From assembly GCA_043808095.1 (NCBI GenBank), contig JAZDFF010000015.1, forward strand, positions 2,015-66,014: a stretch of 64,000 nucleotides of DNA, in the 5' to 3' direction. Source of the stretch: Candidatus Omnitrophota bacterium (GTDB lineage: Bacteria > Omnitrophota > Gorgyraeia > JAZDFF01). Shown here piece by piece: positions 1,954 through 60,697 of this stretch. The notes under the pieces are model-generated. The model did not search any database. It worked only from the letters and a program-made list of their open reading frames with translations, and was not told where the DNA came from. Position numbers and translations under genes: made by a program. Within the stretch, counting starts at the first letter, position 1. Each line of letters begins with the position of its first letter.

Positions 1954-1973
1954 CCTGCCTGCCGGCAGGCAGG
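1954..1973. repeat. 20-bp perfect palindrome cctgcctgccggcaggcagg (copy 1 of 3, inverted relative to the other two; flanked by cggatttt / gattcg)
   Basis: Read directly in the sequence. Lies in the ptsH-ptsI intergenic leader. Confidence 0.7.
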
Positions 1974-2074
1974 AAAATCCGAATTTACACAGATTATTCA
2001 CAGACGCAATTCGTGCAGATTCGATAAAAATTCGTGTGGATTTGTGTGAAATTATGTCTTTTCCAGAAATTTCT

Positions 2075-2341
2075 CTATAATTCCTCTTTACTGACTAAAT
2101 TCTCTAATTCTTTGACCGCCTCGTCAGCATCCTCGCCTTGGGCTATAATTTGAATGTAACTGCCTTTTTCTACAGCAAGCATCAATATGCCCATAATAGA
2201 TTTGCCATTTACTTCCTCATTGTCTTTTTTTACCGCTATGGCAGAGTCAAATTTATTGGCCAGTTGTACAAACAAGGCCGCGGGCCTGGCATGTAAACCC
2301 TGTTTATTTTTTATAATGACTTTTTTGCTAAGTGTTGGCAT
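2075..2341 (-). CDS. ptsH: Phosphocarrier protein HPr
   Basis: MPTLSKKVIIKNKQGLHARPAA... has the His15 region GLHARPA. The true start is probably the internal Met giving ~88 aa, since the ORF-track 5' extension is Cys/Ile-rich junk. Confidence 0.85.
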   Translation of the reverse strand: MPTLSKKVIIKNKQGLHARPAALFVQLANKFDSAIAVKKDNEEVNGKSIMGILMLAVEKGSYIQIIAQGEDADEAVKELENLVSKEEL

Positions 2342-2572
2342 TTTATTGATAATGGCAAAACTAATGGAACACAAATGAACACTGATTACACACAAATAAA
2401 CACGAATTTATCGTTGGAATTTATTCGTGAGAATTCGTGTGTCCCGAATGAAGCAATTGCTTATGTTTAGCTTCAGGATCCCGAAGTGATTCTTAAGAAA
2501 TCACTACATTCGGGGCAATTTGTGAGAATTCGTGCATTGGTTATGCAAAGATTAATAGTTAACTGAAAAATA

Positions 2573-3043
2573 TTAAATCTTTCTCTCGTCTTCCTGGGTG
2601 ATAATCTTAATGATAGCCTTATCGTCTTTTGCGCCTTTTAGGCTTTCCCTGAAATATCTATCCTTTAAAAGGCGGGATATGCGTGCCAACGCCTTTAAAT
2701 GAGGCCCTGCAGAATCTGTGGACGCCAACAAAAGAAAAAAGATGTATACGGGCTCTCCATCTAAGGAATCGAAGTCAACCCCCTTCTGAGATATACCGCA
2801 TGCGCCCACCAGCTTCTGGACGCAATCAGTCTTGCCGTGGGGAATGCCTACGCCTTGTCCTATGGCCGTAGAGCCTAGCGCCTCTCGCGCAAGAAGGGTA
2901 TCGACGATTTTAGCCTTATCTCTTTTTTCGATCTCACCGGCATTGATAAGAAGATCTGCGAGTTCTCTGATTATCTCTTCTTTATTTGTGCCTTTTAGAT
3001 CTGCAGATATTGCCTTTTTACTCAAGAAATCCATCATCAACAT
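2573..3043 (-). CDS. ptsN: PTS EIIA, fructose/nitrogen-regulatory type (EIIA-Ntr-like)
   Basis: 156 aa with a GQGVGIPHGK active-site His motif typical of the EIIA(Fru/Ntr) family. No EIIB/C permease is nearby, so this is a regulatory PTS. Confidence 0.75.
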   Translation of the reverse strand: MLMMDFLSKKAISADLKGTNKEEIIRELADLLINAGEIEKRDKAKIVDTLLAREALGSTAIGQGVGIPHGKTDCVQKLVGACGISQKGVDFDSLDGEPVYIFFLLLASTDSAGPHLKALARISRLLKDRYFRESLKGAKDDKAIIKIITQEDERKI

Positions 3044-3100
3044 TTGCTGCCTCCCCTTTGTTTTATGATAAACATGCTTAAATTTTATTTGATTCTAAAG

Positions 3101-3173
3101 AGCGGCGGATGGGATTTGAACCCACGCCATCCTGCTTGGCAAGCAGGCATTCTAGCCACTGAATTACCGCCGC
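3101..3173 (-). tRNA. tRNA-Gly (anticodon GCC)
   Basis: Manual fold of the reverse complement gives GCGGCGG acceptor, AUUC/GAAU D-stem, CCUGC-UUGCCAA-GCAGG anticodon arm, GUGGG-UUCAAAU-CCCAU T-arm and discriminator U. CCA is not encoded. Confidence 0.8.
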
Positions 3174-3558
3174 ATGACTTCTATTGCCATATTGCTAAAT
3201 TGTCAACGCTTCGTATACCCCGATGGCAAGCATCGGGGCTTGTTTTCTGAATATTCAGTTCTTCTTGGGCATCCTCAGTGTTGACACTGAGAGCGACAAG
3301 CCCTTGCTTTTCTTTTGTGCCTTCGGCACATCGGCTCTTAAGTCCCCAAGGTCAAGCCTTGGGACTTGTCGCCGAATGTGTCAAATTGATAACTTTAAAC
3401 AATACAGCAGTTTAACAGTTTAACAATATGAAAATTCTTTATGGGCGGAAGAGGATTTTCCCGCTACAATAAGTTATTAGCTTGTTGGCGGGATCCCGAA
3501 GATATTCTTACGAAGTTTCTGCATTCGGGAGAACCTTCTTTCGCTATTTAGTCATTCT

Positions 3559-3640
3559 TGCGGACGGAGGGAATTGAACCCCCATGAGTTTCCCCATATG
3601 GTCCTAAGCCATACGCGTCTGCCAGTTCCGCCACGTCCGC
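3559..3640 (-). tRNA. tRNA-Leu (anticodon UAG), long variable arm
   Basis: Reverse complement folds with GCGGACG acceptor, 3-bp D-stem, UAUGG-CUUAGGA-CCAUA anticodon arm, long variable arm and GGGGG-UUCAAUU-CCCUC T-arm. 82 nt. Confidence 0.75.
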
Positions 3641-3717
3641 GCTAAATCTGCTGTCCCTCGCAGACAACTTTTGCACCGTCTCTACTCGGGATTAAAATTT
3701 TATTTCTAAAATTTTAA

Positions 3718-3790
3718 TGAGCCACCCGCGGCTCGAACGCGGCACACCCACCTTAAAAGGGTGGTGCTCTACCAGATGAGCTAGTGGCCC
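3718..3790 (-). tRNA. tRNA-Lys (anticodon UUU)
   Basis: Reverse complement gives GGGCCAC acceptor (one G-U pair), CCACC-CUUUUAA-GGUGG anticodon arm and GCCGCG-UUCGAGC-CGCGG T-arm. 73 nt. Confidence 0.75.
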
Positions 3791-3885
3791 TGAAATTTTA
3801 CAAAGTAAAATTTCACCCCGAGGCTCTGCATCTTATTCATTTGAGCCGAGGGGTAAATCTTAGTTTAAAGTTTTAAGTCAAAGGT

Positions 3886-4446
3886 TTAGAATTTAATTAT
3901 CTCTTCTTCTTTTTCTTTTAAAAGAGAATCAATCTTCTCAATGTACTTATCCGTAATCTTCTGGACCTCATCCTGATATCGGAAGCGGTCATCCTCGGTG
4001 ATCGCAGAGTCCTTCTCTAGTTTTCTTATTGCTTCAATAGCGTCCCGCCGGATCGTCCTTAAAGAGACCCTGCCTTCTTCGGCCATCTTATGCACAACTT
4101 TCACTAACTCCTCGCGTCTTTCTTTAGATAAAGGCGGCACTGCTAATCTTATCACTTTTCCGTCATTAGCGGGGTTTATGCCTAGATTAGAAGCCAGAAT
4201 CTTTTTTTCTATCTCGCCTAAGACTGTAACATCCCAGGGCTGGATTACAATGAGATGGGCATCTGGGGCAGAAATTGACGCTACCTGCTTTAAAGGAAGA
4301 TGCGAGCCGTAATACTCCACATGCAGGCCTTCTACAAGAGTAGGAGATGCCCGGCCAGTACGAATCTCCGAAAATTCCCTCCGAGTCGACTCCAAGGCCT
4401 TTTTCATATTTTCTTCTGAATGACTCATCAATTCTTTTATATTCAT
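3886..4446 (-). CDS. frr: Ribosome recycling factor
   Basis: 186 aa. ...EIRTGRASPTLVEGLHVEYYGSHLPLKQVASISAPD... is the canonical RRF sequence. Confidence 0.9.
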   Translation of the reverse strand: MNIKELMSHSEENMKKALESTRREFSEIRTGRASPTLVEGLHVEYYGSHLPLKQVASISAPDAHLIVIQPWDVTVLGEIEKKILASNLGINPANDGKVIRLAVPPLSKERREELVKVVHKMAEEGRVSLRTIRRDAIEAIRKLEKDSAITEDDRFRYQDEVQKITDKYIEKIDSLLKEKEEEIIKF

Positions 4447-4498
4447 TTTGGCACCTCAATTTTTTATTCTAAAAACCTGGAAAAAAGAATGATGGTTC

Positions 4499-5218
4499 TT
4501 ATTTTACTGTTGTCCCGATATGCTCTCCCAGGATGACCCGTTTGATATTTCCAGGTAGGTTGAGATTAAAGACAATTATAGGCAGACGATTATCCATACA
4601 AAGGCTAATCGACGTAGCATCCATTACCTTGAGGCCTTTTTTAAGCACCTCTATGTATCTAAGGCTATTAAATTTCTTGGCTGACCTATATTTAAGCGGG
4701 TCTCTAGAGTATACCCCGTCTACTTTGGTTGCCTTTAAAATAACATCTGCCTTTATCTCCATAGCCCTAAGGGCTGCAGCAGTATCCGTGGTAAAATAAG
4801 GATTACCTGTCCCGGCGACAAATATAACCACACGGCCTTTTTCTAAATGCCGAAGAGCCCTTCGCCTGATATATGGCTCAGCCACCTCATGCATCTCGAT
4901 GGCCGTCAGTACTCTTGTGGGAACACCAAGTCTCTCTAGTGTATCCTGTAGGGCCAGGCCATTTATTACTGTGGCCAGCATCCCCATATAGTCCGCAACA
5001 GAGCGGTCCATGCCTTCGTCGACTTCGCCTTCTTGACCGCGGAAGATATTGCCCCCTCCCACAACCACTGCCACCTGTACGCCTAAGTGGATTATCTCTT
5101 TAATCTGGGTGGCGATAGAACGGCAGGTCTTATAATCAATGCCGTAATTTTTCTCGCCCTGCAGCGCCTCGCCGCTCAACTTTAAGACAACTCTTTTATA
5201 TCTGGGTTTTTTTGTCAT
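4499..5218 (-). CDS. pyrH: UMP kinase
   Basis: 239 aa. VLKLSGEAL... and [11 protein letters not shown] are amino-acid kinase family motifs. Sits in the conserved rpsB-tsf-pyrH-frr order. Confidence 0.9.
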
Positions 5219-5364
5219 TATTAAAAATGATTCCTGAGATTAATTTAGATTACAGTGATTAAATACCTGTAATCGGTTTTTCCGCCATAATGCTTTGGCG
5301 GACCCGCCAATCTTTGTGGCGGGAAAAATCACTGTAATCAAATCCAATATTTTTTTCAACCAGA

Positions 5365-5892
5365 CTACTCCTGGCCTAATTGAAAACGAGCAAACCTTCT
5401 GATAACAATATTTTCTCCGGTTTTAGCGATTAAGGCATGCAGCCTGTCTCTTATCTTAAGACTCTGGTCTTTGATGAAAGGCTGCTCCAGTAAACAATGC
5501 GTCTGGTAAAATCTTTCGGCATCCGTCTCTTTGCCGAGCAGATCCTTCGGGACATCTTCTTGTTTTATATACTGGGGATTCATGGCAACTATCTGCATAA
5601 CCACTTCTTTGGCAAAATTGATAAATTCGTCCGTCTTAGCCACAAAATCAGTCTGGCAGTTAATCTCAACCATGGCGCCGAGTTTTGCGCCCATATGAAT
5701 ATAGGATTCGACTCTTCCTTGTTTAGCCACGAGATCCTGTTTCTTTTTCGCAGTCTCAAGGCCCTTTTTACGCAAAACCTCTATAGCCTTCTCAATATTT
5801 CCTTTTGTTTCCTTAAGGGCGCTGCGGCAATCATTCACCCCGACGCCAGTAAGATTGCGCAGTTCTTTAATTAATTCTACAGATATCTCCAT
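5365..5892 (-). CDS. tsf: Elongation factor Ts (short form)
   Basis: MEISVELIKELRNLTGVGVNDCRSALKETKG is the classic EF-Ts N-terminal UBA-like domain. The start is moved to the internal Met to remove a 41-nt overlap with rpsB. Confidence 0.85.
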   Translation of the reverse strand: MEISVELIKELRNLTGVGVNDCRSALKETKGNIEKAIEVLRKKGLETAKKKQDLVAKQGRVESYIHMGAKLGAMVEINCQTDFVAKTDEFINFAKEVVMQIVAMNPQYIKQEDVPKDLLGKETDAERFYQTHCLLEQPFIKDQSLKIRDRLHALIAKTGENIVIRRFARFQLGQE

Positions 5893-5896
5893 AGAT

Positions 5897-6775
5897 TCAA
5901 ACCTCTTCTTTGGATTTAGGATTGACTTTCTTGACATGAGGCTTTGCCTTTGCGGGTTTCGCCTCTTCCAATACCTCTGTTTCCAATTTCTCTAACTTAA
6001 CATCCAGTTCAATGGGCTTTAACTCTACTGCCCCTTCTTTTTCTTCTTGCGCCTTCACCCGGATCTCTTCTTTCACCTGCAGGTTATCAAGAAATCTTTT
6101 TCTTCCTGCAACAAGGCTGTCGCTTACCAAAGAGGTAATAGTCTGGATGGATTTTATGGCATCATCATTGCCGGGTATGGGATAGTCAATACCTTCAGGA
6201 TTACAATTGGTATCAATTAATGCCACAACCGGAATCTTAAGGCGCCTCGCCTCAAAGATCGCCGTCTTTTCTTTATTGGGATCAACGACATAAATGGCCG
6301 AAGGTAAATTCTCCATATCCAAGATACCAGCAAAACTCCTTCTTAGGCGTTCCATCTCTTTGGTCAGGCTGGAGACCTCTTTTTTAGCAAGAACCTCAAA
6401 TAGACCGTCCGCTTGCATCTTCTTAATCTCTTTGTAGCGATTGATAGATTTTTTTATGGTCTTAAAATTGGTCATCATCCCGCCAACCCATCTCTGGTCA
6501 ATATAAAACATATTTGCTTTTTTGGCAGCCTCTCTTATTATATCCTGGGCCTGTCTCTTGGTGCCTACTAATAATACCTTGCTCCCGCTTGCAGCTAAAT
6601 CCTCTAAGAAAACTCTCGCCTTGTTTAAAGATATCACGGTCTTTTCAAGATCTATGATATAAATCCCGCTTTTTTCCCCAAAAACATAGTCCTTCATCTT
6701 GGGATTCCAGCGTTTCTTTTGGTGTCCAAAGTGAACCCCTGCCGCCAGCAGTTGTTTTAGTAATTCTGTAGCCAA
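5897..6775 (-). CDS. rpsB: 30S ribosomal protein S2
   Basis: LLAAGVHFGHQKKRWNPKM motif. The likely true start is TTG (M-ATELLKQLL...) 5 nt downstream of a GGAGGTG Shine-Dalgarno. The ORF-track N-terminal extension is probably not translated. Confidence 0.85.
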   Translation of the reverse strand: MATELLKQLLAAGVHFGHQKKRWNPKMKDYVFGEKSGIYIIDLEKTVISLNKARVFLEDLAASGSKVLLVGTKRQAQDIIREAAKKANMFYIDQRWVGGMMTNFKTIKKSINRYKEIKKMQADGLFEVLAKKEVSSLTKEMERLRRSFAGILDMENLPSAIYVVDPNKEKTAIFEARRLKIPVVALIDTNCNPEGIDYPIPGNDDAIKSIQTITSLVSDSLVAGRKRFLDNLQVKEEIRVKAQEEKEGAVELKPIELDVKLEKLETEVLEEAKPAKAKPHVKKVNPKSKEEV

Positions 6776-7079
6776 ATTTACACCTCCAATGTAAAGACTG
6801 TTGAAAAATAACCTCTGATACCGCAAAGACGCAAAAATCCGCCAAGACGCAAAAATATTATTATCAACATATTCTTTGCGCTTTTGCGGTAATTTTGCGT
6901 TTTAGCGGTGTAAATTCAATTATAAACAGCCTTATGTTGTAAGTTTTAGTTGCTTAATCCAAAATTGCCGATTTTAGTAATATACCTTATTTTATTTGGC
7001 TTGGCAAGTAATTTTTTAACGCAAAGGCGCAAAAAACCATCAAAGCGCTAAAAATACCTTACCGCAAAGACGCCCACCT

Positions 7080-7320
7080 TCGCTAAAGCTTCGGTGGGCA
7101 GTCCGCTGTAGCTGAAGGCGAAAGCACTTCAGCGAAGGCGGACGCAAAAGTACAGAAATAAATTTGCAGTTTTGCTGACTTTTGCGGTTTTGCGGTAATT
7201 TTGCGTCCTTCGATTACACTCAGGACGCAATCCTGAGCCCTTCGACTCGCTCGCCTCTGGCGAGCTCGCTCAGGGCGAATACTGAGCTTGTCGAAGTAGA
7301 GCACAGTCGAATGGATTGCG
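7080..7320. repeat. GC-rich, stem-loop-dense intergenic element (family copy 1) flanked by ACCGCAAAGACGC / TTTGCGGTAATTTTGCG inverted words
   Basis: Local GC is far above the ~35% background. Several hairpins are readable: gcccacc...ggtgggc, gctgaag...cttcagc, gcgtcc...ggacgc, gctcgcc-tct-ggcgagc. It shares cttcgc / agcttcgg / gcgaaggcgga words with 62580-62900. Confidence 0.45.
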
Positions 7321-7321
7321 A

Positions 7322-9109: not shown

Positions 9110-9287
9110 CCTCTTATAGCTCCTTTTAATATCCTAGCAATATTAAGCCTTATAATACTATCATATGCATTGACTTTTGTCTAATGTTTTGATACTATTA
9201 AACGCGAATACACGCGAATCTAACGCTAATGGTCGCGAATTTAGATATTAGCGTTAATTCGCGAAAGATCTAGCGAAAATTAGCGTT

Positions 9288-11612: not shown

Positions 11613-11616
11613 TCTC

Positions 11617-14636: not shown

Positions 14637-14646
14637 ATATAAATAA

Positions 14647-15194: not shown

Positions 15195-17024
15195 TCAATT
15201 GTTTTCTTTATGGACCTTATCCTCATTTGAGGCGGTATTTAGCCTGGCCCCAGAAGCAGCGGTCGCAGATTCTATATAAAGATTGGGGTAGTCAAAAAGA
15301 TCAACTGGGCGGCCTTTTTCCAATTTACTTCCAGAAGGGCTATAAAGGATATTTAAAAAGCGCGGAAAACCGCTTTCAACATCAACTACTTCAGCAATCT
15401 CCTGGTTATTGAGCTTGACCAGACTTCCTATAGGATAAACAGAAATTTTTTCCACTAAGGCCTTTACTATATTGGGATCAAATAATCTAACTGTCTCATT
15501 TTTAATCACCTTCATTGCCTCATAAGGGCTAACCGCTTCTTTCCAAGGCCGAAGATGGGTCATCTCCTCAAAGGCGTCGCACACAGAAACAATTTTTACC
15601 GAATCCTGTAATTGGTCTGCCTTAAGCCCTTCTGGATAACCGCTGCCGTCCAGGCGCTCATGATGGGAAAAAGCAATACTCCTTACTATTTCAGGAAGAA
15701 ATTTTGCCTGCTCCAAAATTTGCTTTGAATAAACGGGATGCTTCTTAAGTTCTTCATGTTCGTGCTGGAGTAATATAGCGGACTTTAAAATAATGCCTTT
15801 AAATCTAACAAACCCGATATCATGCAGGAACGTACCCCTTCCTAAATCAGTGAGTTCCTGAAGATCAAACCCCAGCTTTATTCCAACTATAAGGGAAAGT
15901 ATAGTCACATTTAATATATGGCAATATAAATACGCCTGTTCGTTATCCTTGTTGGCCAATTTTATTAAATTGCGATCGTCTTTTTTTAGCGCCTCGATTA
16001 ATTGCTCGATAAAAAGATCAACGGCCTTATAATCCAATAACTCATCTTTTTCTGCGCGATTAAATATGTTTTCTGCCAAAACAAGGCCATTGTGATAAAA
16101 CTGCTCAGCCTCCTTTTCATTTCCTTGCGCCTTAAGAGGTTGTTTTGCTATCTCCTCCTGCCTGGGGGTAGATATCTTTTTATCTTGGCCGTGCCTGGTA
16201 ATTTCAACGCCTAAAGTCGAGGTCTGGGCCTGGATAATGCCAACATCGATTATCGTGGCTTTGTGAGTGAATCCTGTCAGGAGGCTTAACTCACAAATAC
16301 GATTTATGCGCCGAGGAATCCCGCCGCTAGATTCATAAATAACAGAGACAGCCTCGGGTGTAAAAATAGGCTCTTTTCTTCCAGCAACAGCCAAGCGGTG
16401 ATCAATGTAATTTTTTGTCTCATCATAATTTAAGGCATCGAGATGGCTTTTTACGGCAATCCTCTGTTCAAATTGTTTTATGCCATCGATCTTTTGTCTT
16501 AAATCGGATTGACCAACCAATATCAACGTTAGCAGGAATTTATCCATAAGTTGAAAATTTAAAAGCATGCGTAACTGTTCAAAAATCTTAGGATCATCTA
16601 TGATATGGGCCTCATCAATAATTACAATGGTATTTTTACCATCATCATGGTTGTTGTATAAAATATTCTTGATGCTCTCAAGGGCCAGGGATTCCGCAAA
16701 AGAGGATGCCCCGGACTTATGAATCAGGTCTTTATCGCCAAGGCTCATTCCAATATTAACTAAATTTTCTGCAGAGGTTGAGCGGGGATGGGTAATAAAG
16801 GCAACCCTGAATTTCTCGGGGTTCAATTCCTTTAAAAGGGCATTGGCAATAACCGTCTTACCGCAACCAAATATCCCGGTAAGCATGGCCGCGCCCAACA
16901 TCTCCTGCGCGCAATAGGTCAATTTTAATAAGGCATCCTTGTGCTGGGGAGAGTAATAAAGAAACTTGGGATCCGGGCTGTTACGGAAAGGTTTCTCGGT
17001 TAGGCCCCAATATGCTTCATACAT
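15195..17024 (-). CDS. ExeA/GspA-like AAA ATPase (PEP-CTERM/EPS-locus type) fused to a C-terminal HD-GYP c-di-GMP phosphodiesterase domain
   Basis: 609 aa. The N-terminus MYEAYWGLTEKPF...GIFGCGKTV (Walker A) matches the three shorter paralogs in the window. The C-terminus carries FLHDIGF ... HHERLDGSGYPEGL ... VCDAFEEMTHLRPWK, i.e. the HD and GYP motifs. Confidence 0.8.
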   Translation of the reverse strand: MYEAYWGLTEKPFRNSPDPKFLYYSPQHKDALLKLTYCAQEMLGAAMLTGIFGCGKTVIANALLKELNPEKFRVAFITHPRSTSAENLVNIGMSLGDKDLIHKSGASSFAESLALESIKNILYNNHDDGKNTIVIIDEAHIIDDPKIFEQLRMLLNFQLMDKFLLTLILVGQSDLRQKIDGIKQFEQRIAVKSHLDALNYDETKNYIDHRLAVAGRKEPIFTPEAVSVIYESSGGIPRRINRICELSLLTGFTHKATIIDVGIIQAQTSTLGVEITRHGQDKKISTPRQEEIAKQPLKAQGNEKEAEQFYHNGLVLAENIFNRAEKDELLDYKAVDLFIEQLIEALKKDDRNLIKLANKDNEQAYLYCHILNVTILSLIVGIKLGFDLQELTDLGRGTFLHDIGFVRFKGIILKSAILLQHEHEELKKHPVYSKQILEQAKFLPEIVRSIAFSHHERLDGSGYPEGLKADQLQDSVKIVSVCDAFEEMTHLRPWKEAVSPYEAMKVIKNETVRLFDPNIVKALVEKISVYPIGSLVKLNNQEIAEVVDVESGFPRFLNILYSPSGSKLEKGRPVDLFDYPNLYIESATAASGARLNTASNEDKVHKENN

Positions 17025-17240
17025 TTGTAAATTCCTTTATCCAACTAATTTTTAGTATCGGATGCATACGGATTTTAGCGCCTGCCTGCCGGCAGGCAGG
17101 GATTCGGGCGGATAAATTCTTATCCGCGACATCCGTAACCATCCGTTTGAATCCGTGATAAAACATTTGAGTTATTAACTGGTCTGATGTATTTTCATAA
17201 GGTTGTTCGGTTAACCCCCAATATGCTTCATACATATTTA
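17025..17240. repeat. ~215-bp leader repeat (copy A): RBS + palindrome cctgcctgccggcaggcagg (17081..17100) + duplicated first ~20 codons of the ATPase gene (MYEAYWGLTEQPYENTSDQ)
   Basis: Near-identical to 19958..20172. The fragment ATG sits 2 nt after the Wzc stop codon. Confidence 0.7.
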
Positions 17241-19133
17241 TTTTTTGCCCTCTTTTTCTTTGCCATAATAGCGGTATTGATAATAGTAATAATGAGAATG
17301 GACCATCTCGGACTGCGGAGTAATACAATTTAAGACAACGCCTTTAACCTGGGCACCGGTAGATTCTAATTGTACCTTTGACCTTAGTAATGCACTCCTT
17401 GGAGTCCTGCCCACATGATAAACCAATATCACCATATCCGCCTTTTGCCCGATAATGGATGCATCAGTAACCGATAGAACAGGAGGAGAATCAAATAAGA
17501 TAATATCATAATTTGTCTTTAGTTCTTCAATTAAGTTATTCATTTGATTTGAGCTCAATAAAGTCGGCGGATGACCGTGTAATTGACCGGCTGTTAAGAT
17601 ATGTAATTTATTCAGGCCAGGAACTTTTAACGCCTTATCCCATTCCACAGAGCCCATAAGGATATCGGTAAAATTATTTACAGACTCGTTAAATTTTGCC
17701 TTTCCGCTTAAGATGTCGGTTAGGCCGGATCCGACTTTTAAACCAAAAAGATTATGTAAAATAGGCCGTCTTAAATCAGCATCTATGAGGATCACCCTCT
17801 TGCCTCTTTGGGCGATAGCCATGGCAAGATTAGCGACAGTCAGAGATTTTCCTTCTCGCGGAGCTGTCGAGGTAATAAGTATTGATTTTGCATTTTCTTT
17901 ATTTTGAAAAGTTGACCAGACATTAGTCTCTAAAATATTGTAGGCCTCGGCAAGGGTAGATTCTCTCGAAGTATTCATTAGCAATTTGTCCTTCATCTCT
18001 TTAACCTCTTGCGAATAGCTGATACGGCCATGGGGCCAAAACATTACCCGCGGCCTCTTAATATGCTCCAAAAAGGGGATTATTCCCAGTACAGGCAATT
18101 TTATAATATTTTCCACGTCCTCAATAGTGCCGATAGAGGTATCCAAGTTCTCAACTACGAAGGCAAGGATAAAACCAAGCATTAATCCCATTAACGAGCC
18201 TGCAGTAAGATTCAGGCGTTTGTTTGGACTGATAGGATGCTTGGGTTCAGTGGCCTGGCTTACCAGCGTAACATCTGAAGCCTTTTCTGCCTCAGCAATT
18301 CTGGCAGCTTCAAACTTTTCTCGCAGCATCCGGTAGGTCTGCTCACTTATCTGGGCATCTCGCTTCAGGCGGGCATATTCCAGTTCACTGGCGGGAAGAG
18401 TCTTGGTCTGTTCTTCTAACTGGCTAATCTCTTCTTTCAGGCGAATTATCTGAGGATGTTTCTCAGTAGCTTTGGTAATGAGTTCGCTAATCTGGCCTTT
18501 TAATTCGGCAATTCTTTTTTCAAGTTCGACGGCCACTCCTGTAACAGCCTCTTTTTCTTTAAAGACCTTTAACCTTTCTTCTGCCTGATTTAATTCCTTC
18601 TCTACTGCGGCGAGTCTTTCTTGAATGAACTGACGGGTTTCGCTTAACTCTTTGCGTTTTTGGTTTAAATTTTCCTCCATATAGACCTGGATAGTCATAT
18701 TGGCAATACGGGTTATCAGGCGAGGGTCGCTGCCCGTTACAGATATCCGGATAATATTGGTGTCTTTCATCTTATCGGCAGAAACACTCCTCTGAATATC
18801 TCCAATAATTGTCTCTTTATCCTTATCAGGCGTCTTTTCGCCAATCAAGCCGAGTTTTTTAGCCACATCTTCAGCCATCTTACGGCCTTCAATAACCTTT
18901 ATTTCAGTGTCTAAGGGGTCACCCCGTGTCCAGGAAACCCTTTCTAAAATAGTGCTAATAACTGTCTTTCGTTGCTCATACCTTACAGCTGCGGAAGTCT
19001 GAAATACAGTTGGCTGCGTCTTCGTATAAAACGCCGCTAATAAAAACGAGATAAGAAAAGCAGAGATAATAACGACCTTTCTTTTACGCAATATCCTTAG
19101 ATAATCCTGAAAATTTAATTCGTATTGGGGCAT
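17238..19133 (-). CDS. Polysaccharide co-polymerase / BY-kinase (Wzc-like chain-length determinant with C-terminal tyrosine autokinase)
   Basis: 631 aa. N-terminal Wzz domain with a coiled coil, P-loop ITSTAPREGKSLTVANLA, a DxD motif and a C-terminal tyrosine cluster HSHYYYYQYRYYG. Confidence 0.8.
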   Translation of the reverse strand: MPQYELNFQDYLRILRKRKVVIISAFLISFLLAAFYTKTQPTVFQTSAAVRYEQRKTVISTILERVSWTRGDPLDTEIKVIEGRKMAEDVAKKLGLIGEKTPDKDKETIIGDIQRSVSADKMKDTNIIRISVTGSDPRLITRIANMTIQVYMEENLNQKRKELSETRQFIQERLAAVEKELNQAEERLKVFKEKEAVTGVAVELEKRIAELKGQISELITKATEKHPQIIRLKEEISQLEEQTKTLPASELEYARLKRDAQISEQTYRMLREKFEAARIAEAEKASDVTLVSQATEPKHPISPNKRLNLTAGSLMGLMLGFILAFVVENLDTSIGTIEDVENIIKLPVLGIIPFLEHIKRPRVMFWPHGRISYSQEVKEMKDKLLMNTSRESTLAEAYNILETNVWSTFQNKENAKSILITSTAPREGKSLTVANLAMAIAQRGKRVILIDADLRRPILHNLFGLKVGSGLTDILSGKAKFNESVNNFTDILMGSVEWDKALKVPGLNKLHILTAGQLHGHPPTLLSSNQMNNLIEELKTNYDIILFDSPPVLSVTDASIIGQKADMVILVYHVGRTPRSALLRSKVQLESTGAQVKGVVLNCITPQSEMVHSHYYYYQYRYYGKEKEGKK

Positions 19134-19141
19134 ATCTTATC

Positions 19142-19957
19142 TTAGGCCTCTAAATCTGCAGCTGCCTCTTCAATAATAGGAGAATCGATTAGCGCCAGCT
19201 TCCTGCCAAATCCAGTAAGTAAAGCTAAATCACAGATATTGTTTATCCTGCGAGGTATTCCGCCTGATTTTTCATATATTGTATTAAGCGCTGAATCATT
19301 AAATAAAGGGGCGTGTCTTCCGGTAATCAATATACGGTGTAATATGTATTTGACTGTATCTTCGCGATTCAACTTATCTAAATAACAACGGATAGCGATC
19401 CTCTGGGCTAAGGGCTTATTGGCCTCAACAATCTCTTTTAATTCCGGTTGACCCAAAAGTAAAAGGGTAAGCAAAAACTTATCCTCCAGCTGGAAATTTA
19501 AAAGTAATCTCAGCGCTTCCCATACTTGTTCGTCACGGATAATATGCGCTTCATCAACAATAACTACCGTCCGCCTGCCGTCCTTGGCGTTATTGACCAA
19601 TATATTATTTAATGTATCTACTACTACGTTCGCCAGGACTTCAGTCTTTTTTGTAGGCAGGTCCTTTGCCCCAAGACCAGCAGCTATAGCCATCAGAAGT
19701 TCTATATAATCAAATTGGGGGTTAGCCACAAATGCAATCCTGTATACGTCCCTGCCCAGTTCTTTTAATAAGGTCCTGCCTAAAAGGGTCTTGCCGCAAC
19801 CAAAAACCCCGGTCATAATCGCCGACCCCTTTTGTTCTCTTACCGCATAAAGTAAACGCGATAGCCCTTCTTCATGTTGCTGCGAATGATACAAGAACCT
19901 GGGATCAGGCGTATTCTCAAAAGGTTTTTCTGTTAATCCCCAATACGATTCGTACAT
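19142..19957 (-). CDS. ExeA/GspA-like AAA ATPase (EPS-locus secretion ATPase family)
   Basis: 271 aa. MYESYWGLTEKPF... Walker A GVFGCGKT and Walker B VVIVDEAH. Confidence 0.75.
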   Translation of the reverse strand: MYESYWGLTEKPFENTPDPRFLYHSQQHEEGLSRLLYAVREQKGSAIMTGVFGCGKTLLGRTLLKELGRDVYRIAFVANPQFDYIELLMAIAAGLGAKDLPTKKTEVLANVVVDTLNNILVNNAKDGRRTVVIVDEAHIIRDEQVWEALRLLLNFQLEDKFLLTLLLLGQPELKEIVEANKPLAQRIAIRCYLDKLNREDTVKYILHRILITGRHAPLFNDSALNTIYEKSGGIPRRINNICDLALLTGFGRKLALIDSPIIEEAAADLEA

Positions 19958-20172
19958 CTACAAATTCCTTTATTCAACTTATTTTTAGTATCGGATGCAT
20001 ACGGATTTTAGCGCCTGCCTGCCGGCAGGCAGGGATTCAAGCGGATAAAATAACTTAATCGCGACATCCGTAGCCATCCGTTTGCATCCGTGATAAATAA
20101 CCCTTTAGTTATTAACTGGTGAGAGGTATTCTCAAAAGGCTTCTCAGTCAGGCCCCAATATTGTTCATACAT
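19958..20172. repeat. ~215-bp leader repeat (copy B) with palindrome at 20014..20033 and duplicated gene-start fragment (MYEQYWGLTEKPFENTSHQ)
   Basis: Aligns with 17025..17240 along its whole length. Differences in the coding-like part are mostly synonymous. Confidence 0.7.
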
Positions 20173-20232
20173 CTTTTAATACACGAATTCCACGAATTGC
20201 CACACTAATATTCACTTCCCCCATTCAGTGGA

Positions 20233-41509: not shown

Positions 41510-41513
41510 TAAA

Positions 41514-53726: not shown

Positions 53727-53738
53727 ATTGGAATGGTA

Positions 53739-54773: not shown

Positions 54774-54857
54774 TATTTATTTAACTATAATATACACAAT
54801 CACTTAGGCCCTGTCAAGCAAAATGAAATTCAAAATACGACGAGCCTTAGTGAGCAA

Positions 54858-55670
54858 TTAGGTAAAGCTTTCTATCTCATCTTTTATGATTATTTCATCA
54901 ACAACAGAGGCCTTTTCTATAAATCCGGTTAAAAGACCAAGATCGCAGATACGGTTAATCCTGCGCGGTATACCTCCAGAGAAATCAAAAATAGTTTTTA
55001 ATGCTTCTTCTGTAAAAATTGGAGCGTCTCTTCTACTTACTTTAAGTCGATGAAGAACGTAGTTCTTTGTCTCTTCTTGGTTTAAGGCGTTTAAATAACA
55101 TTTTATCGCTATCCTTTGTTCAAAAGGTTTATTGTCTTCGATCTTTTGCCTCAATTCTGGCTGGCCGAATAACAACAGGGTTAAAAGAAATCTATTCTGT
55201 TGGTGAAAGTTTAAAAGAAGCCTCAATTCATTAAAAACCTGGTCATCCTGAATGATATGCGCCTCATCAACAATAATCACGGTATCTTTACCTTCCCGGT
55301 AATTTGCCATGAGGATATTTTCTAAAACCTCGTGTAGATAATCCGTAGAGATTTCTGTTTTTTTAGTGGGCAGTTCTATCTCTTTTAAGTTCCTTACAAT
55401 TGCCCTAAGTAGATCGACATACTCCAATTGGGGATTGGTAATGGATGCTACTTGGTAATGCTCTTTCTTGAGTTCATCAAAGATAGCCTCGGCCAAAACA
55501 GTCTTTCCGCAACCAAAAATTCCGGTTAGCATAGCTGCCCCCACTCGTTCCTTAATAGCATAAAGCATGCGCGATAAGGCCTCTTGGTGCTGATTAGAAT
55601 AGTAAAGAAAACGCGGGTCAGGGGTATTTTGAAATGGCTTCTGATTTAGGCCCCAATATTCTTCGTACAT
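54858..55670 (-). CDS. ExeA/GspA-like AAA ATPase (EPS-locus type)
   Basis: 270 aa. MYEEYWGLNQKPFQNTPDPRFLYY, GIFGCGKT and IIVDEAH. Confidence 0.75.
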   Translation of the reverse strand: MYEEYWGLNQKPFQNTPDPRFLYYSNQHQEALSRMLYAIKERVGAAMLTGIFGCGKTVLAEAIFDELKKEHYQVASITNPQLEYVDLLRAIVRNLKEIELPTKKTEISTDYLHEVLENILMANYREGKDTVIIVDEAHIIQDDQVFNELRLLLNFHQQNRFLLTLLLFGQPELRQKIEDNKPFEQRIAIKCYLNALNQEETKNYVLHRLKVSRRDAPIFTEEALKTIFDFSGGIPRRINRICDLGLLTGFIEKASVVDEIIIKDEIESFT

Positions 55671-55744
55671 ATTATTTTAACTTACTCACTTACTCATTAT
55701 AATAAAGATTAACGAAATTGTCGAATAAAACAATCATTTAGATT

Positions 55745-56539
55745 CTATTCAAAACCTTTTATCTCTTCTTGAACAATATCATCGTCTATAAGGTCAAACT
55801 TTTTGATAAATCCTGCCAAGAGGCACATATCGCATAGACGGTTAATTCTACGTGGTATACCGCCAGAATAATTGTAGATTGAACGAAGGGCTCTTTCAGA
55901 AAAAATCGCGGCTGTGCGATTGGCAACCTGCAAGCGGTGAACAATATATTTTATGGAATCTTCCGGGGTTAAGCCGTCTAAATGGGCCTTTACATTAATC
56001 CTCTGCTCTAATTGTATATTCTCTTCAATTTTCTGCTTTAATTCTGGCTGGCCCAAAAGCAATAATGTTAAAAGAAATCTGTCTTGCAGTTGAAAATTTA
56101 AAAGCAGCCTTATTTCTTCAAAGACATTCTCGTCATTTATGGCGTGTGCCTCATCAATAATAACTACGGTTTGTTTACCGTTTCGCATATTGTTTAATAA
56201 CGCGTCATTAAGAATGTTCAAAACATCTGCTTTTCTTAGGGGGGCAGGATTGCCTAATTGATAAAGAATCATCCTTAAAAGCTCGATATCATCGAGCTTG
56301 GGATTAGCTATAAAGGCAGTTTTATACTGCTCGCTGCTGAGTTCCTTTAATACTGCTTGAGCAAGCATAGTCTTACCACAGCCAAATACACCCGTAAGCA
56401 TAGCTGCGCCCATCTTCTCTCTTACGGTATAGATAAGACGCATTAATGATTCCTCGTGTTGACTTGAACGATAAAGAAAACGCGGGTCAGGGGTATTTTG
56501 AAATGGCTTCTGATTTAGGCCCCAATATGCTTCGTACAT
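55745..56539 (-). CDS. ExeA/GspA-like AAA ATPase (EPS-locus type)
   Basis: 264 aa. MYEAYWGLNQKPFQNTPDPRFLY, GVFGCGKT and VIIDEAH. Confidence 0.75.
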   Translation of the reverse strand: MYEAYWGLNQKPFQNTPDPRFLYRSSQHEESLMRLIYTVREKMGAAMLTGVFGCGKTMLAQAVLKELSSEQYKTAFIANPKLDDIELLRMILYQLGNPAPLRKADVLNILNDALLNNMRNGKQTVVIIDEAHAINDENVFEEIRLLLNFQLQDRFLLTLLLLGQPELKQKIEENIQLEQRINVKAHLDGLTPEDSIKYIVHRLQVANRTAAIFSERALRSIYNYSGGIPRRINRLCDMCLLAGFIKKFDLIDDDIVQEEIKGFE

Positions 56540-56675
56540 AGTTTAAAAGACTGCTGAAAAATACTTTTTAACGCGAATAATCGCTAATCTAACGCGAATT
56601 CTCGCTAATTCTATTTGCGAAAACTAGCGTTTGATTCGCGTAAATTAGCATTTAAACCATTATTCAACACTCCCT

Positions 56676-57581
56676 TTGACAATAAACCCTAACCCTGCTA
56701 TTATAAGCTCAATGATGGATTTATCTATTATCATCGTCAATTATAATGCCAAAGATGTTTTAAGTCAATGTCTAAATTCAATTTACGACAATACCAAAGA
56801 CGTTGATTTCCAGATAACTGTTATTGACAATGCTTCAGGAGATGGCAGTCCGCAAATAATAAGGCAAAGATTCCCTCGCGTAAAATTAATCCAAAATAAT
56901 GTAAATTCGGGCCTGACCCAAGCGCAAAACCAGGGTTTAAAGCTGGCACAAGGTAAATATCTTCTGCTCCTGAATAACGACACCTACTTACAACCTCAAG
57001 CCATAAATAAACTGATAGAATTTATGGACCAAAACCCCGACGGAGGGATTGCCGGGCCAAGAATTTATACTAATGCAAATATACAAATTTCATTTGCCTG
57101 GATGCCGAAAAATCCCCATTTATTTCTGCCCTATATTTTGTTCAAGAAGCTGTTTCTAAATTACGAATTGAGAAGGCATAACTACAATCTAAATAACAAC
57201 CTAGAGGTAGACTATGTTTCAGGCGCTTGTCTAATGATACGCAAGACAATTATGGAAAATATTGGCTATATGGACGAGGGCTATTTTGTCTATAACGAAG
57301 ATGATGACTTATGCCTGCGCGTAAGACAAAAAGGTTATAAGATTTATTACCTACCTGAAGCAAAAGTGATTCATCTGCGAGGAAAAGGCGGCGGTGGGTT
57401 ACACCCCTACAGGATGATCCTTGAAATTCATAAGGGGATATTTAGACTGTATAGAAAATTTTATCCTAAGCCAAATTTTCTTCTGGACACTCTTATTTTG
57501 GGGATGTTAACACTTAGGCTGGGGTTAGCGATTATTATTCAATCCGTACGCTCTCTCAAGAGACTGTTTTTCCGTTCCTAG
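56676..57581 (+). CDS. Glycosyltransferase family 2
   Basis: 301 aa. LSIIIVNYNAKDVL...LLNNDT (DxD-like) in a GT-A fold. The only plus-strand gene in the right half. Confidence 0.75.
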   Translation: MTINPNPAIISSMMDLSIIIVNYNAKDVLSQCLNSIYDNTKDVDFQITVIDNASGDGSPQIIRQRFPRVKLIQNNVNSGLTQAQNQGLKLAQGKYLLLLNNDTYLQPQAINKLIEFMDQNPDGGIAGPRIYTNANIQISFAWMPKNPHLFLPYILFKKLFLNYELRRHNYNLNNNLEVDYVSGACLMIRKTIMENIGYMDEGYFVYNEDDDLCLRVRQKGYKIYYLPEAKVIHLRGKGGGGLHPYRMILEIHKGIFRLYRKFYPKPNFLLDTLILGMLTLRLGLAIIIQSVRSLKRLFFRS

Positions 57582-58710
57582 ATAAATTCAAAAAAATTTT
57601 AAAAGGCCGCAGGATATAACTGATATATGCCTTTAAATAAGATTTCGCAGGATAACGATATCTGAGTAATCCCTTATCCGGAAAAATATTGCTAATGAGC
57701 AATTTAATCAGGCTACCTGTTGTATCAAACATCAGGAATTGAACAAGATAGCTGACCTTGCCTAAATCTTCTTCCTGCCAGATATAGTCTTTTTTTAGAA
57801 TGCGGGAAATGACTTTCTTTTTTAACTTAGAGGGTGAGAATTTTTGTATAATTTCACCCTCTATCGGCGCACCTAAGATATCTTTACAATAACTCAGGCA
57901 ATAATAAATCATATTCTTTGTTCCCGATTCATTGGCGGTCTTTAATAATTTATCCCACGAAATGCTCTCTTTATAGACCTCAAGTATTCTTTTGATATCA
58001 TACAGCCAGATAATATTTTCGAAAAAATGAATCATGGTTAAATGCAAGGACAAATACAGGATATTATCTTCGACTGATAAACCCAGACAATCTAGACCTT
58101 CAATCTTAAAATTTACTGCTCGTCTGTAAAACATAATTTCGTCGATATTCAAAACTCTATTAAATTTATTATGTAGAACTTGCCAATGTATTTCTATAAG
58201 CAACTTGGCCGATAAAGTAAGACTGTCATCCCCATTTCGGCTATAAATGATAGAACCGAAGTCCCGTGTACTTATTTTATAACCCAGCCCTTCAAGACAT
58301 TTTTCAGTAATATCCAATTGCCCCGGCAATATCAGTATATCAATATCAATCATTGGCCTTAAACCGGGATTGTCCCCGTATACGCTATTTATAAGAGCTG
58401 TCCCTTTTAGAATAATTGACCTTATGCCTAATTTGTCTAGCGCCTTGAGTATTTTTGCCAATTCTCTAAGCGCAAGGGTATTTTGGGTTAGGACGCAATA
58501 ATAGTTGTTTTCGAGATCTTTCCTGATTAAATCAGGGACCGAAAGAAGCAAATTTGCCTTTTTTAAATTATAAAAGATAACAGTAGCTATGCCTTTCTTC
58601 TTAGCCAATCCCACAAGATAAGACCAATCTTCGTCTTTAACATTAGCTAAGGTATCTGGGTTTATTTTGCCGTTTAAAAGTTCTAAGATGATTTTTTTGG
58701 GAAGGTCCAT
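57556..58710 (-). CDS. Nucleotidyltransferase-family protein (PF14907-like)
   Basis: 384 aa. Helical N-terminal region followed by a GTALINSVYGDNPGLRPMIDIDILI (G...D.D) nucleotidyltransferase-fold motif. Assigned by pattern memory only. Confidence 0.45.
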   Translation of the reverse strand: MDLPKKIILELLNGKINPDTLANVKDEDWSYLVGLAKKKGIATVIFYNLKKANLLLSVPDLIRKDLENNYYCVLTQNTLALRELAKILKALDKLGIRSIILKGTALINSVYGDNPGLRPMIDIDILILPGQLDITEKCLEGLGYKISTRDFGSIIYSRNGDDSLTLSAKLLIEIHWQVLHNKFNRVLNIDEIMFYRRAVNFKIEGLDCLGLSVEDNILYLSLHLTMIHFFENIIWLYDIKRILEVYKESISWDKLLKTANESGTKNMIYYCLSYCKDILGAPIEGEIIQKFSPSKLKKKVISRILKKDYIWQEEDLGKVSYLVQFLMFDTTGSLIKLLISNIFPDKGLLRYRYPAKSYLKAYISYILRPFKIFLNLSRNGKTVS

Positions 58711-58765
58711 TTATGGGATGATTTTAATAAACCTGAAAAGGCATTTTAAACGCTAATTTTCGCGA

Positions 58766-58781
58766 ATCTAACGCTAATATT
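58766..58781. promoter_or_regulatory. 16-bp perfect palindrome AATATTCGCGAATATT within a CGCGAAT-word promoter-region repeat
   Basis: Read directly. Lies upstream of the nucleotidyltransferase-like gene start (58710). The same region carries GAATCTAACGCTAAT, which is also present at 9216..9230. Confidence 0.5.
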
Positions 58782-58851
58782 CGCGAATATTCACTCTATT
58801 ATTAGCGTAAATTCGCGTTTGATTAGCGAGAATTCGCGTTCAAGAAGGTTT

Positions 58852-60600
58852 TTAGAGATCTCTTTGTAATTTTGCAAATTCTAAGTTTTTATATTCTAAC
58901 GAGTCGAGGAATTCTTTAGTGCTACTTATTATAATTTCATTCTGGCTTTTTAAGAAATAAACCCGATCAACAAAATTTAACATACTTAACCGATGCGAAA
59001 TAATTATGCAGGTAAGATTTTTTCTTTTGCCTAACAACTCTTCCAGTATCCTTGTCTCTGAGCTGACATCTAATGAAGAAAGTGCTTCATCAAGGATAAG
59101 TATGGCCGGCTTTTTGATGACCGCCCTGGCAATAGCAATACGTTGCTTCTGGCCTTCAGAAAGTAGAGTAGCATTCTCTCCTATCTTAGTATCATATTTC
59201 TGAGGCAATTCATTAATAAAACTATCGATACCGGTTAATTGTGCCACGCTCATTATTTCATCTTGCGTTGCATTCGGTTTTCCATATTTAATATTGTTTT
59301 CAACTGTATCGTTCCACAAAAATGGCTCCTGGAGGGCAATTCCAATCTGCTCGTAGAGCGCCTCAAACTTTATTTTTTCTAGATTATTGCCGTCAATAAA
59401 AATCTCGCCATTCTGTGGCTCAAATAACCTTAAAATTAGATTTATGATAGTGGTCTTACCGCATCCAGATGGCCCGATAAGGGCAATATGAGTCCCTGGC
59501 TCTATCCTAAAATTCATATTTTCCAGGATAGGCTTTTTATCGCCGTAGGCAAATCTAACCTCTTTAAAGACAATCTCGCCTTTAGTAAACTTAACCAGCG
59601 AGGCATCGGGACTTGCCTTTATCTGCGGCTCTTGACTTAAGATCTCATCTATCCTTGAACAAGAAAGTGTCCCCATAGCTACTTGCTGGAAAAAGTTGGC
59701 AAATCGTGATTGCAGGCCAAATAGTTGGTTGATATAAAGCATTATGGCGGTCAGGCTGCCGAAAGTTAGCCGGCCTTTAATCACCCAGTATCCTCCATAG
59801 AAAAAGATTATTCCGCTAACCAGGCGGGACATAACATTACCGCTAAAACTACTCATCGCCCCTAACTTCGTAGTCTTTTTGGATAATTTTAGATTAATGA
59901 TTAGTTGTCTTAAATAGGCCCTGAATTCATTTATCTCTTTTCCAAAAGCCTTGACTAACTGGATATGCGAAAAGACCTCAGCCAGGCGTTCGTATATGTC
60001 TTGAGAATTTTTAAAGAGTTCCTCATAGAGGGTTTTTAGCCTCTGCATAAAATAATAAGGCACAAAATATAAAAATGGAATCAAAAATAAAGATAATAGA
60101 GCGAGTTGCCTGTCCAGATAAAAGATAATTGCGAAGATAAACAAGGTGCGCGGCAAGATGGTTAAAATCTCTGAGAGCGATGAAGTAATAAAACTAATTA
60201 CCCTGTCTATATCATAACTAATCCTGTAGATATGCCCTCCGGTAGATTTTTCCTGGAAGAAGGAAAAGGAAAGTTTAGTTAAATGACCAAAGACCTTTTT
60301 ATGTAAGTCGAATCTTAACTTTAAATTCAGATAACTGCTAAGGTAGGTGGTTGCGGCATTGAGCAGTCCCGTCAATATAAACAATCCGCCCATGGATAAG
60401 CCGATAATGATAAAAAAGGTCGGGTCTTTGGCTAAGAGACCTTTATCAATAAGCAATTTGCTTAAATACGGGTTCGCCAGGCCAAAGACAACAGCTACTT
60501 CCCCTAAGACAATTACCAGAAGTTCTGTCTTCCAGTAAGGTAAGAGGAACTTGGCAAATTTTAGAAAAAGCCTGAGATCTTCTTTTTTAAGTTGCTGCAT
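58852..60600 (-). CDS. ABC exporter, fused permease/ATP-binding protein
   Basis: 582 aa. 6-TM exporter domain, Walker A GPSGCGKTT, signature LSEGQKQRIAIARA and Walker B ILILDEALS. No C39 peptidase domain. Confidence 0.8.
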   Translation of the reverse strand: MQQLKKEDLRLFLKFAKFLLPYWKTELLVIVLGEVAVVFGLANPYLSKLLIDKGLLAKDPTFFIIIGLSMGGLFILTGLLNAATTYLSSYLNLKLRFDLHKKVFGHLTKLSFSFFQEKSTGGHIYRISYDIDRVISFITSSLSEILTILPRTLFIFAIIFYLDRQLALLSLFLIPFLYFVPYYFMQRLKTLYEELFKNSQDIYERLAEVFSHIQLVKAFGKEINEFRAYLRQLIINLKLSKKTTKLGAMSSFSGNVMSRLVSGIIFFYGGYWVIKGRLTFGSLTAIMLYINQLFGLQSRFANFFQQVAMGTLSCSRIDEILSQEPQIKASPDASLVKFTKGEIVFKEVRFAYGDKKPILENMNFRIEPGTHIALIGPSGCGKTTIINLILRLFEPQNGEIFIDGNNLEKIKFEALYEQIGIALQEPFLWNDTVENNIKYGKPNATQDEIMSVAQLTGIDSFINELPQKYDTKIGENATLLSEGQKQRIAIARAVIKKPAILILDEALSSLDVSSETRILEELLGKRKNLTCIIISHRLSMLNFVDRVYFLKSQNEIIISSTKEFLDSLEYKNLEFAKLQRDL

Positions 60601-60697
60601 TTCGTCTATTTTATTAACGGATGCATACGCCTACCAACAAGGCAGACAGGGATTTCTGCGAATTCGCTTGTTTGACTATCTGATAAAGTTAAAGGGC

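Follow-up and report, generated by a model that had tools for sequence, protein, structure and literature searches.

Most of a 64,000-nt stretch from the metagenome-assembled genome (MAG) of a Candidatus Omnitrophota bacterium—the whole stretch is called 'the window' here—consists of a large polysaccharide-synthesis cluster, with genes for glycosyltransferases, Wzz/GNVR kinases, flippases and four AAA_22 paralogues. Genes of the phosphotransferase system (PTS) lie in the window, too, and among all of these is dispersed a perfect 20-bp palindrome, CCTGCCTGCCGGCAGGCAGG, with the halves CCTGCCTGCC|GGCAGGCAGG, which we name PAL. Three exact copies are present. One, at 1954–1973, lies in the 170-nt spacer between ptsH and ptsI, upstream of ptsI (162–1904, minus strand); the second, at 17081–17100, lies 57 nt upstream of a minus-strand gene for an AAA_22+HD protein (15195–17024); and the third, at 20014–20033, lies 57 nt upstream of a minus-strand AAA_22 gene (19142–19957). 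All three are 50–57 nt from the start codon of the gene that follows. The PtsI encoded here is 100% identical to an NCBI protein listed for Candidatus Omnitrophota. The number expected in the window is 0, and 100 dinucleotide-preserving shuffles of it gave 0 matches. No fourth match with three or fewer mismatches occurs anywhere in the window, which also contains no G+C-rich perfect palindrome of at least 14 bp other than PAL.

A sequence-only reading of this DNA had listed the same three copies and had described the first as inverted within the same flanks. Our scan of the window bears this out, apart from a detail: the flanks of copy 1 are the reverse complement of those of copies 2 and 3, cggatttt(agcg)-PAL-gattcg, and differ from them by the 4-nt 'agcg'. 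The decayed copy reported near 60605–60660, together with its associated block, is homologous as well. On the plus strand, cggatgcatacg (60618–60629, 12/12 match) is followed by the degenerate palindrome cctaccaacaaggcagacagg (60630–60650) and then by gatt; the whole, at 60618–60655, aligns with the leaders of copies 2 and 3, and is a decayed copy of that leader module upstream of an ABC exporter gene (58852–60600). The description of these places as leaders of unrelated genes needs amendment. The two AAA_22 genes are paralogues that share a single duplicated leader segment, ~93% identical as against ~60% for the coding sequences, while the ptsI copy occupies an intercistronic spacer that is not a proven leader. 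The Wzz-kinase and AAA_22 genes (17238–19957) lie between copies 2 and 3, in a repeat–gene–repeat layout.

Distribution and insertion of the palindrome

PAL is not confined to the paralogue leaders of the window. In 596 Gb scanned, with 185,579 species represented by one genome each, at least 120 stretches, each from another species genome, carry an exact copy, where ~0.5 would be expected by chance; the same 20 bases recur without change in phages and in more than ten phyla of bacteria. Among the 120 matches listed, divided by record title, 38 loci belong to Bacteroidota (7 of them cultured isolates) and 36 to the Candidate Phyla Radiation (CPR)/Patescibacteria; 11 are in MAGs labelled 'Gammaproteobacteria', 10 in Omnitrophota, 6 in Planctomycetota, 4 in genomes titled only 'bacterium' (unclassified), 4 in Desulfobacterota ('delta proteobacterium'), 3 in Nitrospirota and 2 in Bdellovibrionales, with 1 locus each in the Planctomycetes–Verrucomicrobia–Chlamydiae (PVC) group, Verrucomicrobia, Chloroflexi, Elusimicrobia, Ignavibacteria and Pseudomonadota. 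In the viral database IMG/VR, 35 stretches hold 44 copies, up to six of them on one 29.5-kb phage contig whose only recognisable genes are those for terminase and adaptor. Two control palindromes, one inside-out and the other permuted, had 0 matches in IMG/VR.

The flanks that we fetched around such loci (L-numbers below; 846 kb in total) contain 5 further exact copies and ~9 with one or two mismatches. The contigs L143, L086 and L154 each have their own lineage of variants, and a 21-bp tandem array was also seen; such lineages within single contigs indicate that the variants are copied. The longer unit of the type seen in the window, CGGATTTT N0–4 PAL GATTC, had 0 matches in a metagenome scan. 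Searches of the literature for the sequence, for its halves, for the peptide LPAGRQ that it encodes in some genes, and for palindromes generally, found nothing relevant.

PAL inserts cleanly. In six within-locus comparisons of filled and empty sites (L004, L037, L083, L106, L159 and L165), exactly 20 bp have been inserted and the target is not duplicated. The flanks are not shared between loci, and the only signal in them is a preference for A at −1 (44%) and T at +1 (38%). Neighbouring genes are unrelated: 150 neighbouring proteins fell into 181 Pfam families, none present more than three times, and by this tally—in which crude calling of open reading frames (ORFs) missed small GIY-YIG ORFs—no neighbouring gene is enriched. 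Copies are mostly found between genes; of the spacers that hold them, 49 are co-directional, 8 convergent and 7 divergent. Nine lie within real proteins, and all nine are in frame, read as x-LPAGRQ-x; five of these nine are inside the Pfam domains FtsK_SpoIIIE, GDP_Man_Dehyd, Ribosomal_S6, GatB_N and ScpB. The LPAGRQ segment is absent from eight S6 homologues. PAL also stands in the variable loop of one phage tRNA-Met.

Several notions of what PAL inserts into, or of what it forms part of, were tried and set aside. The idea that it splits functional tRNAs was rejected, nearly all of the split tRNAs being dead 5′ fragments upstream of an intact copy. Targeting of hairpin loops was dropped as a rule: 32% of copies are in loops versus 31% of 2132 control positions, and for stems of at least 5 bp the figures are 14% and 9% (p = 0.04); the D-loop site of the nuclease cassettes described below is the exception. 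Short-period tandem repeats are mildly enriched as targets, and no more than that (p = 0.002; 3.6% versus 0.5% at a strict threshold). No half-sites serving as the terminal repeats of a larger element were found; such matches proved to be degenerate full palindromes.

A GIY-YIG nuclease gene as partner

When the tRNA contexts were read, a small ORF of the GIY-YIG nuclease family was seen just downstream of PAL. A dedicated hidden Markov model search of all the fetched loci ascertained through the palindrome found ten GIY-YIG ORFs, and an exact PAL stands 16–22 nt upstream of four of them. By our estimate, the chance of four in ten falling in a 10-nt window within 8-kb loci is ~5e-10. At L060, an exact PAL stands ~41 nt upstream of the GIY-YIG domain, and at L077 a decayed one stands ~34 nt upstream of the ORF.

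An independent sample was drawn from the other direction. Homologues of one of the GIY-YIG proteins were taken from the protein database without reference to PAL, and their contigs were then fetched (P-numbers). In eight out of eight homologue families, PAL or a close variant adjoins the gene, and in seven it is upstream. In six, PAL or a 1-mismatch variant is set within a duplicated 5′ fragment of a tRNA, 17–23 nt before the start of the gene. The exact palindrome is found at this distance from the true start in Shapirobacteria (P0178), Dokdonia (P0180), Colwellbacteria (P0207, with a second PAL after the gene), Namhaeicola litoreus (P0219) and Croceiramulus getboli (P0233, where there are two tandem genes, each with a PAL). 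P0183 has a 1-mismatch copy 23 nt upstream and P0246 has one ~74 nt upstream; in P0182, from Cytophagales, nothing but a degenerate PAL-like sequence is present, and it lies 3′ of the gene. An intact tRNA adjoins the gene in all eight families, directly downstream in seven and upstream in P0182/L160. The resulting cassette comprises a tRNA 5′ fragment split by PAL, usually in the D-loop at A21|N22, followed by the GIY-YIG ORF and then by the intact tRNA. CPR and Bacteroidota, the sources of these homologues, are also the groups in which PAL is most frequent among the matches listed.

The PAL-associated proteins are single-domain proteins of ~80 residues. Pfam assigns them to PF01541 only, and NCBIfam contains no specific model for them.

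Some of these genes are poorly delimited in public records, or have been disturbed. Gene calls at L161–L164 (P0183) and L167 (P0219) begin the GIY-YIG ORF too early and take in the tRNA fragment and PAL, giving it a spurious N-terminus such as '...SSVVDLPAGRQGASLLRLI-MYFVYV...'. In L170 and L171 (374–1369), a gene for an IS110-family transposase (DEDD_Tnp_IS110) lies exactly inside the palindrome upstream of the GIY-YIG gene, leaving only the right half (..caGGCAGGttggtagac); their sister contig, L169, has an intact variant palindrome. Elements of the IS110/IS1111 group are known to target palindromic repeats. And at L060, a 701-aa ORF (2790–4892) joins an N-terminal part, the palindrome (read there as PACRQAG), the GIY-YIG domain and the domain of a type I restriction S-subunit; judging by its sequence, this may be a GIY-YIG cassette that has inserted in an hsdS gene.

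Nuclease-associated hairpin repeats are known as a kind. The Ssn proteins, single-domain GIY-YIG proteins of CDD family cd10448, are site-specific nucleases of single-stranded DNA (ssDNA) that bind a hairpin repeat—NTS/dRS3 in Neisseria, and 'SRM', for Ssn-related motifs, generally—and cut beside it (Chenal et al., Nat Commun 2025, PMC11893778). In 71% of homologues, repeats flank the Ssn gene, and the dispersed copies number in the hundreds; natural transformation of Neisseria is modulated by the Ssn–repeat pair, and the family has been reported across phyla (PMC11893778). Cleavage by SsnA needs a conserved directional flank, a non-palindromic sequence that orients the repeat, and the main text of the paper mentions neither tRNA nor Bacteroidota nor Patescibacteria (PMC11893778). 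The PAL system resembles this one in several respects. Both have a small (~80–95 aa) single-domain GIY-YIG nuclease and, on the flank of its gene, a 20–50-nt inverted repeat that forms a hairpin; in both, the repeat is also dispersed elsewhere in the genome, mainly between genes; and the 'repeat–gene–repeat' arrangement recurs in L165. PAL differs in being a perfect, loop-less 20-bp palindrome of another sequence, identical in more than ten phyla and in phages; in having its nuclease genes at tRNA genes, behind a duplicated tRNA 5′ fragment that it splits at the D-loop; and in occurring, as well, in frame in housekeeping proteins. The breadth of PAL is unusual, and the tRNA-linked cassette had not been described.

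We think it probable, though well short of certain, that the three palindromes in the window and their decayed fourth are solo copies of a tiny nuclease-associated hairpin repeat common to many phyla and phages. We propose that its wide spread is due to its being the DNA hairpin cognate to one conserved clade of ~80-residue, single-domain GIY-YIG proteins. The master arrangement would be the one in which PAL stands ~17–23 nt upstream of the nuclease gene, within the duplicated tRNA 5′ fragment and usually between A21 and N22 of the D-loop, with the intact tRNA directly after the gene. Solo copies would be clean insertions at sites that tolerate them: intergenic spacers, simple-repeat islands, dead tRNA fragments, the variable loop of a phage tRNA, and surface loops of proteins, where they contribute LPAGRQ. 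By analogy with Ssn and NTS/SRM, the nuclease probably recognises PAL extruded as a hairpin in ssDNA and cuts beside it, and this predicted activity might mobilise and spread the repeat in trans, affect recombination or incoming DNA, or both. The copies in the window would lie in transcribed spacers of the ptsH–ptsI operon and the exopolysaccharide cluster; there, each would also be an 8-bp G+C hairpin of the mRNA, enclosed by larger imperfect ones, and might influence expression or recombination locally.

A number of observations weigh against this proposal. PAL fits the SRM motif, HGTCWYN(0-2)YYVSBRHN(0-5)WNVSBRGN(0-2)RNCYNB, in 0 of 179 copies on either strand, whereas the NTS control fits, and it lacks the conserved directional flank, having only the bias to A at −1 and T at +1. 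The PAL-associated proteins, candidate members at most of cd10448, the family of Ssn, have as their nearest solved structures (PDB) the UPF0213 proteins 1YWL and 1ZG2 (E ~1e-9). By hmmsearch, the 64-kb window has no GIY-YIG ORF, and no GIY-YIG gene was found in the ten Omnitrophota loci that carry PAL, so that for the organism from which the window comes, the link is indirect. Finally, the 58-nt block that includes PAL at 17050–17107 (minus strand) is 100% identical to that at 19983–20040 (minus strand), and such perfect identity in the leaders of diverged paralogues could reflect a local function of the palindrome, or gene conversion.

The proposal can be pressed further. PAL might be the smallest mobile DNA unit yet described: a 20-bp hairpin mobilised in trans, without target duplication, by an ~80-residue GIY-YIG clade across more than ten phyla and phages. 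The nuclease gene would home into tRNA D-loops and rebuild the tRNA as it does so, the GIY-YIG fold would be a new kind of 'transposase' for hairpins, and the LPAGRQ inserts in essential proteins would be the footprint of the process. We offer this version tentatively; it is possible, and we doubt it more than we believe it.

Were the nuclease-associated repeat to be confirmed, one 20-base sequence would mark a nuclease-plus-hairpin system common to bacteria as distant as CPR, Bacteroidota, Omnitrophota, Planctomycetota and others, and to phages, and PAL could serve as a tracer of horizontal exchange. The concept of Ssn nucleases acting on ssDNA would be extended by a perfectly symmetric target, by a niche in tRNA D-loops and by insertions in coding sequences, and a defined pair of enzyme and site would become available for ssDNA tools. 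In annotation, PAL accounts for odd spacers, for spurious '...DLPAGRQ...' N-terminal extensions on GIY-YIG genes, and for 6-residue inserts in proteins such as S6, FtsK and GatB. The consequences are modest for the window alone; its PTS operon and exopolysaccharide cluster probably carry the palindromes as passengers in their transcribed spacers.

Spacers of the window and other explanations

In the window, PAL is set in spacers rich in short-period repeats (ACGGAT/ATCCGT and CACGAAT/ATTCGTG) whose arms pair with one another, and a transcript of such a spacer would, when modelled, fold to a composite hairpin in which PAL is one branch. The ptsH–ptsI spacer (1905–2074, minus strand) is a structured island in which CACGAAT/ATTCGTG and CACAGAT repeats pair around PAL; its minimum free energy is −44.2 kcal/mol (z = −3.2). 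The leader island of the AAA_22+HD gene (17025–17161, minus strand; z = −3.65) has ACGGAT/ATCCGT short-period inverted repeats around two hairpins, PAL and GCGGATAA..TTATCCGC, and the leader island of the AAA_22 gene (19958–20098, minus strand; z = −2.8) is its duplicate. Upstream of each of these two islands is a remnant of an AAA_22 N-terminus: the first ~20 codons at 17162–17239 (minus strand), and a second such remnant at 20099–20176 (minus strand). The order here—5′ fragment, island, intact gene—is also the layout of the tRNA 5′ fragment in the GIY-YIG cassettes. Comparable simple-repeat islands flank the palindrome in many other phyla.

The ptsH–ptsI spacer is 170 nt long here versus 15 nt in the nearest relative (80% PtsI identity), and on this account we regard the whole island as an insertion. 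In the contig of a relative, L157 (2881–2960), a 100-N gap occupies the end of ptsH and the start of the ptsH–ptsI spacer, and is followed by 'aatctgtgtaatc'; this suggests that a repeat island there broke the assembly. As RNA, PAL itself forms an 8-bp stem with a CCGG loop (−13.9 kcal/mol). Promoter and terminator scans found no promoter-like or terminator-like site with any of the three copies, the flanks being gattcg and aaaatc, with no U-tract. Only tRNAs reach the Rfam gathering score in the window, and the palindrome regions give noise.

The sequence-only reading had suggested that the palindrome might be an RNA hairpin, a protein-binding site, or a mobile motif of the kind represented by repetitive extragenic palindromes (REPs) and miniature inverted-repeat transposable elements (MITEs). 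As an RNA element, PAL would be an intercistronic or leader hairpin that controls the processing, stability or translation of ptsI and the exopolysaccharide genes, co-opted for this whatever its origin, and so compatible with a nuclease-associated repeat. All the copies are 50–57 nt upstream of start codons in co-directional arrays, with no promoter-like site between PAL and the start; the 8-bp stem is nested in larger structures with z of −2.8 to −3.7; the 58 nt around PAL are identical in paralogue leaders whose coding sequences have drifted to ~60%; and the decayed version precedes a third gene, which is not a paralogue. A local role of this sort is possible, and we think it somewhat unlikely: terminator-like context and an Rfam match are both missing, the conservation of the leaders may be gene conversion, and elsewhere PAL keeps no consistent position with respect to genes, lying in spacers of all three orientations and within coding sequences as well. 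The notion of a gene-specific operator, at which a dimeric transcription factor would co-regulate PTS and exopolysaccharide genes, fares much worse. A perfect 20-bp dyad that precedes several genes of the same region is what such a site might look like, but the identical 20-mer stands beside unrelated genes (181 Pfam families) in more than ten phyla and in phages, within coding sequences and in tRNA fragments; no regulator gene is consistently near it among the 150 neighbouring proteins; and the motif arrived by insertion. We judge an operator very improbable.

The third suggestion came closest, and the reading of PAL as a dispersed, mobile hairpin is supported, but its partner is a GIY-YIG family rather than a RAYT or a DDE transposase. 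Like REPs and REPINs, which depend on RAYT transposases, PAL is a short, G+C-rich, extragenic palindrome that has many dispersed copies and flanks a single partner gene; it inserts without target duplication, and it forms hairpins in mRNA that can affect stability. Unlike them, it has no GTAG-type 5′ tetranucleotide, its partner is GIY-YIG rather than Y1 HUH, and it is a perfect palindrome identical across phyla and found in coding sequences and tRNA fragments, too, whereas REPs are imperfect and lineage-specific. A classical REP, moved by a RAYT or IS200-type Y1 transposase, or a minimal MITE of two 10-bp terminal inverted repeats, moved by a DDE transposase, would suit a G+C-rich dispersed palindrome in an A+T-rich genome, and insertion without duplication would be compatible with single-strand transposition of the HUH type. 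The same lack of target duplication argues against DDE enzymes, however, and neither Y1 nor DDE transposases are enriched among the 150 neighbouring proteins. No Y1 (HUH) family is among the top 25 of the 74 families in 54 window proteins, no element was found with the half-sites separated by a gene, and the sole consistent partner gene found is GIY-YIG. We regard this explanation as improbable. To a chance match, low-complexity sequence, or an artefact of sequencing or assembly, we give hardly any credence. PAL is built of CCTG/CAGG units, it is true, and the assembly gap in the relative's contig falls at the same spacer, but the shuffles and the control palindromes gave 0 matches, the flanks are host-specific, and the insertions are kept in frame in essential genes. 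PAL is found, moreover, in cultured isolates, a single-cell genome, long-read MAGs and short-read MAGs from many studies, which excludes a technical artefact.

Two other groups of short repeats invite comparison with PAL. Rickettsia palindromic elements also insert in frame into protein genes, housekeeping genes included, and add a short peptide; they are ~100–150 bp long and confined to Rickettsia and its relatives, whereas PAL is 20 bp and pan-phylum. To our knowledge, they have no partner gene. The G+C palindromes of fungal mitochondria—the GC clusters of yeast, and the PstI palindromes of Neurospora that flank tRNA genes—are short, conserved and set in A+T-rich spacers, often next to tRNA genes. 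They are organellar and lineage-specific, and are thought to be both mobile and signals for RNA processing; we know of no nuclease gene defined as associated with them.

Related palindromes and other repeats

PAL has company in some of the fetched loci. The phage contig L154 carries, at 3919–4142, a tandem array of at least ten copies of a 21-bp palindrome variant, CCATGCCTACCGGCAGGCAGG, and L112 has, at 1890–2220, an array with a 44-bp period of another palindrome, GGGACAGGTCGCGACCTGTCCC, adjoining a copy of PAL. A second G+C-rich perfect palindrome, TCCGCCAGCTGGCGGA, occurs in six places in CPR and other MAG loci (L011 3331, L015 2857, L016 160, L032 966, and L040 2960 and 4460), versus ~0.0002 expected in 846 kb, and TCCCGATAGCTATCGGGA recurs in L052 and L062. 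These may represent another cross-phylum family of mini-palindromes.

Within the window, two small genes encode proteins with the PD-(D/E)XK_3 ('GxxExxY'-type) nuclease fold, and one of them (61028–61402, minus strand) lies ~400 nt from the decayed palindrome. Intergenic spacers of the window—at 6819–7206, 9198–9240, 17119–17162, 20054–20097, 56567–56609 and 58746–58788—contain arrays of short motifs (CGCGAAT/CGCTAAT, TTTGCG/CGCAAA and ACGGAT) spaced ~10–11 nt apart, often as inverted sets that would fold to long imperfect hairpins. Finally, a 39-nt repeat (GGATCCCGAAG...CATTCGGG, 82% identical) is present twice, at 2476–2514 and 3491–3529, in the tRNA-Gly/Leu/Lys region between the PTS genes.

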